DNA of 32,904 bases from a candidate division WOR-3 bacterium (GTDB taxonomy: Bacteria; Hydrothermota; Tepidihabitantia; SM23-42; JAOAFX01), in NCBI GenBank assembly GCA_039802265.1, contig JBDRWI010000023.1, positions 1-32,904 on the forward strand, in the 5' to 3' direction. Below are positions 7,177 to 27,862 of the stretch, piece by piece. Position 1 is the first letter of the stretch; every line of letters starts with the position of its first letter. The notes under the pieces were generated by a model, which worked only from the letters and a program-made list of their open reading frames with translations, did not search any database and was not told the origin of the DNA. The position numbers and the translations under genes are program-made.

Positions 7177-8211
7177 CTATTTTAATCTTATAAGGGGGTC
7201 GCCATACAACACAAACTGCAGAAGTGTCTTCTGGTCATCGTCGTCCAAAAAACCATGTCTTCTGATCATCTTGCGCGCAAAATCCAATTTTGCGTTCTTA
7301 AATGCCTCACCCACGGTAATCCCCTGTTTTACATATTCCAAGAAATATTTCACCAGCAAATCCGCCTCGGTTGAAGGCGGAACCGGTGGTCCATAGGCAA
7401 TTGTTGTTGAACCACAGAAACAAAGGACATGATCCTGACTCAAAAACCTCAAAGAAATTGCATTATTTTCGGATTTATTGATAATATATGCGCCATAGCA
7501 GGCCTCGGATGCAACAACACCCGAGGCATCAACAATATTCTTTGGGGTCAGGGCAATTGGATAATTATCACCTTCTTGACCATACCAGTTTGATGAAATG
7601 TCACTTCCGTGGAGATTAAAATATAAAAAATCTTTTTCCTGGAGCCAAACGGATTGGAATTTATCCGAAGTAATCGGTGGTGAAATCTTCAGATCTTTCA
7701 CATCCCCGATTTGCTGATAAACATTCTTTGATGCCTCCTTCCATACTTTGGCGGTCATCCCGAAGGATTTATTTACCATTTTAAAAGACTTGTTTAATTG
7801 TTTTATGATAAAGTCCGCATTCCGGTTATCAGGAATTCGGGCGCATACCCGTTCCGGTATCAAAAAATCGTCATCCCTTGAGGCGTAGGGATTGTCCGAG
7901 AGAACACTTCTATCATCATCCGCACAGGGATTGGGCAAACGGAAAAAGGGAACGACCTTATCACCGCCAAGCAACAATAAAAAATCAACACTTCCCCAAC
8001 TTGCCTCAATTGACTGGATAAAATCTCTGATTGCCCCGGGGTCTTTCTTTGCGGGTTTTATCCTGAATCGGTTGGACTGGTCAAAGTAGATAAATTCAAT
8101 CTGGTATCCTTTTCTTTTTTTAATATAATCTTTAACTGCCTCCTCCACCGATTTGCTATCGCCAATTTCTTTAACAAGAAAATCTTTACCGCTTAAAATC
8201 AGCATCCGCAT
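7177..8211 (-). CDS. Peptidase C25 (gingipain/caspase-fold)-like cysteine protease, no signal peptide
   Basis: LLLLGGDKVVPF, SDNPY, ARIP, catalytic-like NLHGS and EACYG, and C-terminal FVLYGDP. Confidence 0.75.
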   Translation of the reverse strand: MRMLILSGKDFLVKEIGDSKSVEEAVKDYIKKRKGYQIEFIYFDQSNRFRIKPAKKDPGAIRDFIQSIEASWGSVDFLLLLGGDKVVPFFRLPNPCADDDRSVLSDNPYASRDDDFLIPERVCARIPDNRNADFIIKQLNKSFKMVNKSFGMTAKVWKEASKNVYQQIGDVKDLKISPPITSDKFQSVWLQEKDFLYFNLHGSDISSNWYGQEGDNYPIALTPKNIVDASGVVASEACYGAYIINKSENNAISLRFLSQDHVLCFCGSTTIAYGPPVPPSTEADLLVKYFLEYVKQGITVGEAFKNAKLDFARKMIRRHGFLDDDDQKTLLQFVLYGDPLIRLK

Positions 8212-26368: not shown

Positions 26369-26396
26369 TTGACATTTGCAAAAAGGGGAATATAAT
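26369..26396 (+). promoter_or_regulatory. Sigma70-type promoter of the selenoprotein gene
   Basis: TTGACA-N16-TATAAT, then SD-like AAGGGGGT before ATG 26418. Confidence 0.75.
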
Positions 26397-26417
26397 TTAC
26401 AATGAAAAGGGGGTAAA

Positions 26418-27479
26418 ATGAAATTCAAAAAACTCCTACCCTTAAGTCTCCTTATTCTTCTCTTGTCAACCCCGGGCTTTGCTGCCCAGAGGGTGGTAGT
26501 TTGTGAGGAACTCTATCAGGAAGACTGAGGTGGCTGCACCATTGCCAGTGGGACACTGGCACAGATTGCCATAAACTATCCGGGCAGGGTCGCAGCAATA
26601 GAGATGCATATTGATAATCAATTTCCTCTATACAATGCTGAGGCGCGCCAGAGAATGTACTTTTATCCACCCCCACATTGGTATAATGGTTCTTGGATAT
26701 ATGCAACCCCTTGGCTCTGGATCGATGGCACTAAAAAAGGCCGCACCACTTACACAAATTGGCAAGATTCTATAGTTGCCAGGATGAACCGTCCTTCACC
26801 TTTTTTCTGCACAATGTGGGGAATATATAATCAGGGGACAGGAAATGGAACAGTCTATGCAAAATTCAAGAGCGATACTACCGCAACGGTTACTGGACGT
26901 GTCCGTTTTGTTCTGACCGAGGATAGTTTATATTACTTAGGACCAAATGGTGATGGATGGCACAACCATGTGGCAAGGGATTATCTACCGGATACAGGTG
27001 GAACAGCAGTAACTATTGCACCCGGTGATTCTGTAATTGTTAGCAGGAATTTCACGGTTCAAGCAGGCTGGAATGCAAACCGGTGTGAAATCGTTGCCTG
27101 GATACAAGACATAGTTTTGCGACCAGATACTACAATTGAAATCTGGCAGGGTGGAATGATTAAAGTTACAGATTTGACTGCGGTCGAAGAAGATATTTCA
27201 CAAAAACCAGTGATACTCGCAATCTCACCCATTCCCAATCCCTGTGTGGACCAAACCAGATTTATCTTCACGCTTAATAAAGGTGAATCATATACCATTT
27301 CATTCTTTGATGTGAGTGGGCGAAAGATTCGTGAGATAAAAGGATATGCATCAGGAGATAAACAGATAATAGAATGGGATTTGAAAAATCAAACAGGTCA
27401 AAGGGTCAATTCTGGGGTTTATCTTTACCACTTTGAGAGTAACACAACCAATACATCAGGGAAAATTGTAGTTAGATAA
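26418..27479 (+). CDS. Secreted Omp28-like thioredoxin-fold selenoprotein (UxxC) with C-terminal FlgD-Ig/T9SS-like domain, 353 aa
   Basis: MKFKKLLPLSLLILLLSTPGFA-AQRVVVCEELYQED-TGA-GGCTIA..RVAAIEMH is in frame with the 26604 ORF. TGA at 26526-26528 occupies the first Cys of the Omp28 CxxC motif. Further motifs: TPWLWIDG, VLTEDSL, HNHVARD, IVAWIQD, and C-terminal PNP..FDVSGRKI..WD..SGVY. Confidence 0.85.
26530..26572 (+). promoter_or_regulatory. Candidate bacterial SECIS element
   Basis: Perfect stem TGCCAGTG(26543-26550)/CACTGGCA(26554-26561) with a GGA loop starting 22 nt after the UGA. Lower stem GTGGC(26530-26534)/GCCAT(26568-26572). Confidence 0.7.
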
Positions 27480-27501: not shown

Positions 27502-27534
27502 AAGGCGCGGCACTTAAATCGCCGCGCCTTTTTT
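27502..27534 (+). terminator. Rho-independent terminator
   Basis: AAGGCGCGGC-N9-GCCGCGCCTT followed by TTTT. Confidence 0.9.
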
Positions 27535-27575
27535 AATTTGCTTCTGATTTGGGTAAGATTAATTAAAAATTCACC

Positions 27576-27604
27576 TTGACAAAGGAGAAATTTATGGATA
27601 TAAT
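27576..27604 (+). promoter_or_regulatory. Sigma70-type promoter upstream of the S8 protease
   Basis: TTGACA-N17-TATAAT, about 260 nt upstream of ATG 27863. Confidence 0.7.
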
Positions 27605-27862
27605 TATAATAGTTACTGGGAAATTTAAAAATTACTGTGCAAGACTTAAGTCATATTCTGTATGGCGTTTATATAAATACGACAATGAGGAATAGGGTAT
27701 CGACTATTTTTAGCCAAATGATAATGCCTTTGTCCAAAGAATTATCAAGGAGCACTAACTCCTTGATAGAAGATGATGAATAAGAAAGGAGGTGATATAA
27801 AGAGCAAATAAGAGCAATTGAAATAGCTGGGAAAGTTATAGCACTAAAAGAAAGGAGGCAAT

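Follow-up and report, generated by a model that had tools for sequence, protein, structure and literature searches.

The gene at positions 26418-27479 on the forward strand of a 32,904-nucleotide contig from a candidate division WOR-3 bacterium (the whole stretch of DNA that was analysed, called the window here) has a TGA codon in frame near its start, which raises the question of whether a selenoprotein is made from it and, if so, where such a protein would act. A mechanical ORF caller puts the start at 26604 (Met63). An earlier note on this DNA had proposed ATG 26418 instead, with a signal-peptide-like beginning and an in-frame TGA, and both the translation and the sequence features bear out this frame. 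The full coding sequence gives 353 amino acids and ends at a TAA stop; its single in-frame TGA is codon 37 (26526-26528), read as selenocysteine (Sec, U) in the context EELYQED-U-GGC. A Shine-Dalgarno-like AAGGGGGT (26407-26414) lies 3 nt upstream of the ATG, and a sigma-70-type promoter (TTGACA-16-TATAAT, 26369-26396) is predicted from a 12/12 match to the consensus only. A 4-codon ORF (ATG AAA AGG GGG TAA, 26402-26416, forward strand) overlaps the ribosome-binding site; it begins at about the expected transcription start and is therefore probably untranslated. Downstream is an intrinsic-terminator-like hairpin with a 9-nt loop and a T run (27502-27535, -19.7 kcal/mol), passed over by an automated scan whose loop limit was 8. 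With its own promoter and this terminator-like hairpin, the gene looks monocistronic. Among the sequencing runs matched, no RNA dataset was found; two were labelled metatranscriptomic and were flagged as probably DNA.

The same two signals led us to reject an operon link to the acetate/butyrate-kinase-family gene upstream or to the S8 protease gene downstream. Moreover, neither the butyrate-kinase-like gene nor an S8 catalytic domain was present beside the gene in 52 other loci, within flanks of about 1.5 kb, and the suggestion in the earlier note that the protein serves the neighbouring secreted proteases is not upheld. The gene neighbours point to no client. Eight 'S8' matches near the loci include the window itself and short ones of 134-147 aa beside CU-family (Cys-Sec) genes, which we read as a probable shared, non-catalytic domain. 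Upstream of the S8 protease gene stand a second 12/12 promoter and, after it, a long leader that contains an inverted repeat of 11 bp (27576-27604 and 27743-27768 of the window).

The TGA is well supported. It is covered by contigs of four out of four runs with no other letter listed, from two studies with hot-spring metagenome labels, although one of the four may be the source sample of the assembly, and run contigs of a strain with 16 differences elsewhere carry it too. All 15 family genomes have the TGA form; of their 47 matches at E<=1.4e-35, 46 contain a single TGA and the last does not span the site. Across a sample of the phylum, 111 of 201 genomes gave matches (283 in all), and among the best 150 of these 283, every one of the 80 at E<=2.6e-32 holds one TGA. 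With the codon position checked directly, UxxC was seen in 57/57 distinct close contexts, down to about 41% identity. The motif had been described as U-G-G-C; the UxxC pattern stands, but the paired glycines are not conserved, since the middle residues vary (UGGC in 2/57 and UGSC in 23/57).

These data bear on the possibility that codon 37 is a nonsense mutation or a sequencing error and that the real product begins at Met63. The annotation of all 120 database homologues would fit such a start, as each begins at residue 38 or later, that is, after the UGA (those that are named are assigned to candidate division WOR-3 by their protein labels), and internal starts are used by the P. gingivalis protein HBP35 (PMC2907840). 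However, the same codon is TGA in 57/57 close homologues and in 4/4 runs, and the part upstream, comprising the signal peptide and the first thioredoxin strand, is conserved, with the U mostly 32-38 aa from the start Met in close relatives. There is also no clear ribosome-binding site upstream of 26604, and Met63 is not kept in several homologues. A start at Met63 thus deserves almost no credence, and a sequencing error or pseudogene is refuted by the conservation of the TGA together with the independent run contigs. Because its members have been cut after the UGA, a conserved multi-copy family looks like a set of truncated 'Omp28-related' proteins.

The genome contains selA, selB, selC and selD. 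The genes for SelA (555 bits), SelB (348 bits) and tRNA-Sec cluster on contig C13, and selD (319 bits), itself with an in-frame TGA, is on contig C5, all over their cut-offs. The tRNA-Sec, which matches RF01852 at 76.9 bits against a cut-off of 47, is the only tRNA with a TCA anticodon that was reported, and a tRNA-Trp(CCA) is also present. As had been argued before, the code of the organism is not recoded globally: TGA ends 384 of 1161 long ORFs in the genome and 5 of 19 long genes in the window, and TGA as an ordinary stop, together with the identity of the one TCA-anticodon tRNA, rules this out. Within the phylum sample selA occurs in 67/201 genomes overall, compared with 53 of the 54 with a listed TGA form, a comparison that counts only the TGA forms among the matches listed and that is made over related, not independent, genomes. 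No selA match was found in one genome that has a TGA form (G168, 300 contigs). In another relative (locus L031, G005:C10), the orthologue at about 1435-2496 is followed on the same strand, 161 nt downstream, by selA from 2658, and several more genomes carry selA within about 3-11 kb of family members.

Further from the window protein the residue at this site changes. At the same column, 21 distant loci have 8 TGA and 13 TGT or TGC codons. In a tree of 34 rows, built from phylum sequences only and including no sequence of the marine selenoprotein family GOS_C, the window protein falls in an all-Sec clade of 18 rows (support 100/99), outside which Sec and Cys forms are intermixed, with at least four changes forced. 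Among 146 library representatives there were 111 CxxC stretches and none with U, and the nearest full-length protein shares 35% identity, so that no close Cys orthologue was found. The Cys at this site in distant homologues would suit a reading of UGA37 as Cys by a special tRNA, and UGA-reading Cys tRNAs exist in some bacteria; Trp by a changed code, or a regulatory leaky stop, would be further options. All of these seem very improbable given that the only TCA-anticodon tRNA is tRNA-Sec, that canonical selA and selD are present, that so many long ORFs end in TGA and that TGA forms track selA.

If UGA37 is read as Sec, a SECIS element is expected, and a candidate bacterial SECIS hairpin is found at 26543-26561 (forward strand), with a perfect 8-bp stem, a GGA loop and a free energy of -12.1 kcal/mol. 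It had been placed 22 nt after the UGA, which is true of the loop G at 26551; the stem, whose eight perfect pairs were correctly described, begins at 14 nt. The constraints quoted for the bSECIS model in PMC13188914 (including its Fig. 2 legend) are a loop of 3-5 nt, a stem of 7-8 bp, N-G-G-N-N with a closing pair and a spacing of 21-22 nt; the window hairpin agrees with all four, and no difference from them was found. Taken as a single sequence, it is merely moderately unusual (z -2.46, 4/200 shuffles; some such hairpin in 29 of 1098 comparable TGA contexts of the genome), and the case for it rests on conservation. In the context alignment the conserved core stem is 26545-26549/26555-26559 (+17..+21/+27..+31), paired in 54-57 of the 57 contexts per position, and RNAalifold found the same five core pairs; the lower stem is not conserved. 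The G at +23 is present in 57/57 contexts, in which the residue encoded there is Gly, Ser, Cys, Arg or Trp. Pair +21:+27 is C-G in 27 contexts, U-A in 25 and something else in 5, and to handle relatedness the pair was mapped on a tree in which the residues encoded by the SECIS had been masked, where well-supported branches force at least seven swaps. In a seven-pair version 88.7% of cells pair, slid partners reach at most 41%, and 0/500 shuffles reach 88.7% in a test that ignores relatedness. At the three conserved stem codons the codon entropy lies between 0.22 and 1.0 bits, whereas 35 other conserved degenerate codons average 1.84 bits and go no lower than 1.21. With its invariant loop G, its frozen synonymous sites and the swaps between C-G and U-A, the hairpin is under selection as RNA. 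Among distant TGA homologues, local folding at loci L096, L097 and L101 gives weak hairpins (-2.6 to -6.0 kcal/mol), and the G at +23 is found in 7/8 distant TGA forms but also in 5/13 Cys forms. No Rfam family matched at gathering level, the one chance match being to preQ1-II (E 0.28). The Sec machinery is in the genome, close relatives keep the TGA with a conserved hairpin showing compensatory swaps, and independent contigs carry the TGA. All three conditions that the earlier note named as refuting have thus turned out in its favour; the recoding first put forward on this one sequence has held up, and codon 37 almost certainly specifies Sec.

The protein itself appears to be built for export. 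A Sec/SPI signal peptide is predicted at residues 1-23 (26418-26486) from a basic n-region and hydropathy, with likely cleavage at FAA/Q; residues 6-16 are the most hydrophobic stretch, and 56/57 homologues have a hydrophobic stretch at this position. A thioredoxin-fold domain follows at about residues 24-125 (26487-26792; model pLDDT 92, HBP35 match) and contains the redox motif U37-G-G-C40 (TGA 26526-26528, TGC 26535-26537). Invariant alignment columns are U/C37, C40, the preceding E30, H64 and a T-P98 motif (26709-26711) of the cis-Pro type, in which the proline is probably cis. About residues 127-256 (26796-27185) form an Omp28 Ig-like domain (PF11551, 51.3 bits against a cut-off of 34.9) that aligns with PDB 2R2C at Z 9.7 and rmsd 1.8 over 104 residues. 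The last domain, at about residues 267-353 (27216-27476), is a type-A C-terminal sorting domain (CTD) of a type IX secretion system (T9SS), with 36.8 for TIGR04183 against 23; PF18962 gave 26.3, just below 27, and the PorU and mirolase CTDs gave Z 12.5 and 10.4. The tail is matched in 60/61 aligned family members. In the predicted model the thioredoxin and Ig-like Omp28 domains are followed by a flexible linker and then the CTD. A single-sequence PDB search returned only weak CTD and thioredoxin matches, whereas profile and fold searches reached HBP35 (PDB 5Y1A), the top match in both fold searches (Foldseek E 7e-14; Z 24.7, rmsd 2.5 over 223 residues), with the match spanning residues 1-235 of the model at 15% identity. 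The Omp28 and thioredoxin fold and the sorting tail, both proposed in the earlier note, are strongly supported by family models over cut-off and by fold comparison.

HBP35 is a biochemically studied protein of this design. It has a signal, a thioredoxin domain with an Omp28 Ig-like domain and a T9SS CTD, in 344 as against 353 aa. It reduces insulin through C48/C51, binds haemin by its C-terminal part independently of CxxC, and reaches the cell surface by export (PMC2907840); a discussion of its CTD can be found in PMC11285876 as well. In contrast to the window protein, HBP35 has CxxC rather than UxxC, leaves the cell by a complete Bacteroidota T9SS and is attached to A-LPS, and its activity and haemin binding have been measured, whereas the window protein is known from sequence and a model. 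The Omp28 lipoprotein family (NF033782, PF11551, PDB 2R2C) shares the thioredoxin and Ig-like core; the window protein, however, lacks a lipobox Cys at its cleavage site and carries a CTD and Sec, and membership in NF033782 was rejected at 42.4 bits against a cut-off of 150.

How new is such a protein? Omp28-like UxxC selenoproteins were predicted in 2008 by Zhang and Gladyshev as GOS_C, a group of 74 Sec sequences with a Trx-like fold, UxxC and a predicted bSECIS (PMC2398784), so that the kind is already known, and Table 1 of the 2026 review PMC13188914 equates GOS_C with NCBIfam NF045500, 'Omp28-related selenoprotein'. UxxC is in the same place in GOS_C, after a first strand containing E or D, and two GOS_C sequences in the supplement of PMC2398784 have signal-like N-termini as the window protein does. 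NF045500 matches residues 23-255 of the window protein (E 8e-11) at 41.8 bits against a cut-off of 200, and membership was rejected on this score, the UxxC and thioredoxin-like fold being shared. The cut-off is passed by none of the 201 phylum genomes; the best score, 97.8, belongs to a Cys form, and distant Cys homologues reach up to 90 bits, the same as or above the window protein. The model, of 377 positions, is unmatched past about 275, where the window protein has its T9SS tail, and GOS_C came from marine reads whereas the window protein comes from WOR-3 in hot-spring metagenomes. Other exported bacterial selenoproteins have been described as well: SaoC/SaoX (10.1101/2022.07.06.499078) and, from the table of PMC13188914, ExtKL, a beta-barrel and a TonB receptor. 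The view that both location and architecture were unusual for a bacterial selenoprotein was therefore overstated. What the WOR-3 branch adds to the GOS_C kind is a T9SS tail, at scores below the NF045500 cut-off. Our literature search, which missed most subscription literature, turned up no paper about selenoproteins with a T9SS tail or from WOR-3 and none pairing Omp28 with selenoproteins; by title it gave nothing relevant on secreted or surface selenoproteins and nothing on T9SS in WOR-3. A term search of PMC13326102 and PMC12013277 found no T9SS-tailed or WOR-3 selenoprotein, and the part of the BSepDB genome list that we could consult has no WOR-3 row, though BSepDB may already include these genes under GOS_C.

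We suggest that the gene encodes a selenoprotein of the HBP35/Omp28 superfamily that is exported by SprA/PorV and acts at the cell surface or outside the cell as a thiol-disulfide oxidoreductase, a reading to which we assign a probability of roughly 0.7. Comparison supports the first step, in which SelB binds the hairpin after UGA37 and delivers Sec-tRNA made by SelA and SelD. Guided by its signal peptide, the protein would then cross by way of Sec, and its type-A tail would pass it to an SprA/PorV outer-membrane translocon and so to the surface or the outside. SprA and PorV-family genes are each over cut-off in 15/15 family genomes. The genome of the window has an SprA of 1809 aa (C29:13554-18983, equivalent to L108:1555-6984), 15 matches to the PorV family and dozens of cargo proteins with a CTD. 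Type-A CTD cargo, SprA and PorV/PorQ-family genes are thus held in common with the Bacteroidota T9SS, in contrast to the Gld and PorU components, for which no match over cut-off was found. GldM and GldK were found in 0/1 genome and GldL and GldN over cut-off in 0/15, with Bacteroidota-trained models that no control genome passed, and the best PorU score in this 89% complete genome was 73.5 against a cut-off of 420, likewise passed by no control genome; on that score anchoring at the surface is not supported. A complete T9SS has been reported only in Bacteroidetes (Abby et al., 10.1101/031039), although the system may occur in other FCB phyla (PMC11285876), and to judge from the gene matches it is possibly reduced or highly diverged in these genomes.

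The missing GldKLMN and PorU matches are also what might be expected if the Sec protein were periplasmic, or only loosely released, and took part in the oxidative folding or isomerisation of tail-bearing cargo in the manner of DsbA or DsbC. Complementation of an E. coli dsbA mutant by HBP35 has been reported (as cited in PMC2907840), and 11/15 relatives have CcdA-type conduits, which supply the periplasm. However, the type-A tail is over cut-off and kept in nearly every member, SprA and many PorV-family genes are found in every family genome, and no DsbB was found in the genome of the window, so that we regard a periplasmic folding role as rather unlikely.

At the surface or outside the cell, by analogy with HBP35, U37 would act as the exposed nucleophile, with C40 as the resolving residue, and the enzyme would most likely be a reductase or isomerase whose substrates are proteins in the envelope or outside the cell. 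It would draw its electrons either from a CcdA-type conduit or from thiols or sulfide in the surroundings. CcdA/DsbD-type genes are present in 11/15 family genomes, and neither DsbD/CcdA nor DsbB was found in the genome of the window, which is 89% complete; because of the CcdA-type genes in relatives and the lack of a DsbB match, the reducing direction of exchange is mildly favoured on gene content. In another genome (locus L162:2779-3483, reverse strand; G002:C10), an Omp28-like ORF with no visible N-terminal redox motif lies upstream of genes for a thioredoxin-like protein, a CcdA-type protein and a small redox-disulfide protein; this neighbourhood could be an electron-supply context. Plausible clients would be the numerous cysteine proteases that are exported, and food proteins with disulfide bonds. 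Gingipain-like C25 proteases give 26 matches in the genome, 24 over cut-off, on many contigs, and these are putative clients. A short C25-like gene lies in the window itself (7177-8211, reverse strand), and the copy at C109:1249-2376 has an in-frame TAG. It is quite doubtful that the main job of the exported Sec protein is instead the binding of haem or soft metals, or the detoxification of peroxide or persulfide, with disulfide exchange secondary. HBP35 does bind haemin through its C-terminal part with no need of CxxC (PMC2907840), and the exported Cys-Sec proteins that co-occur have CBM-like or repeat folds rather than thioredoxin folds; against this, the catalytic hallmarks of thioredoxins are all invariant in the present family.

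Is this protein alone? A scan of the genome took 5821 TGA contexts to 150 with coding potential on both sides and 9 with a hairpin, and a motif scan gave 70 raw matches. C51:13127 was rejected as a genuine stop codon, that of a gene which overlaps the following gene, and C36:718 and C17:1830 because they precede ORFs that apparently have their own starts. Eight candidates remain: SelD and seven exported-looking proteins, of which four are Omp28-like with UxxC, two are CBM-like with Cys-Sec and one is a repeat protein with Cys-Sec. The proportion of seven exported in eight is provisional, since the genome is 89% complete and the coding-potential filter missed SelD. Besides the window protein, the putative Omp28-like paralogues are a UADC form at C28:15477-16502 (forward, TGA C28:15585), a UPYC form of ~595 aa at C87:234-2021 (reverse, TGA C87:1922), whose orthologues have sometimes Cys and sometimes Sec, and a UGFC candidate at C18:99-818 (reverse, putative Sec TGA C18:698), which has no sorting tail and may, from its sequence, be a lipoprotein. 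In two other genomes, Omp28-like matches with one in-frame TAA (G007:C10:71205-71873 and G013:C111:1422-2090) adjoin Cys-form paralogues, and G008:C20 has an uninterrupted counterpart.

The CBM-like family is represented at C28:16569-18509 and C2:7579-9507 (both forward; loci L105 and L104, TGA C28:17130 and C2:8131). Its members have a signal peptide, a jelly-roll domain with Cys-Sec-Gly, further domains and a T9SS tail, the fold of the N-domain being a carbohydrate-binding jelly roll; their SECIS has a GGUC loop, with six stem pairs kept in 37/37 contexts, and matches occur in 44/48 genomes of the order, some weak ones hitting a shared domain. The C28 copy directly follows the Omp28-like Sec paralogue, and such adjacency was seen in 13/53 loci. 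The repeat protein (C95:5728-7080, forward; locus L106, TGA C95:6028) has 450 aa, a D-S-C-U motif and a weak match to a beta-propeller repeat that is below cut-off; in its family a hairpin with the loop CGUGU is conserved, C-U is present in 21/21 contexts checked and matches occur in 45/48 genomes of the order. Apart from the sorting tail, no NCBIfam or Pfam family over cut-off matched the CBM-like or repeat families, and no name in the table of PMC13188914 can be recognised as either of them. The exported-looking candidates would span three unrelated folds and are often clustered with each other, sometimes with selA. Tentatively, and with less than even odds, we raise the possibility that the Sec machinery of this WOR-3 branch mainly supplies the cell surface, where an extracellular Sec redox relay would serve a coat of gingipain-like proteases, exported by SprA/PorV with no recognisable Gld motor.

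These results correct a systematic annotation error, by which 120/120 database homologues have been left without a signal peptide and an active site. They extend the Omp28-type selenoproteins beyond the marine GOS_C to a WOR-3 clade that bears T9SS tags and is strictly Sec-containing, and they provide an unusually clean SECIS, supported by covariation, that can be used for better models of bacterial SECIS elements. As a natural Sec counterpart of HBP35, the protein makes the advantage of Sec over Cys outside the cytoplasm directly testable. If the wider proposal is true, this lineage would have a mostly extracellular selenoproteome, and it is here that a specialist might be surprised.
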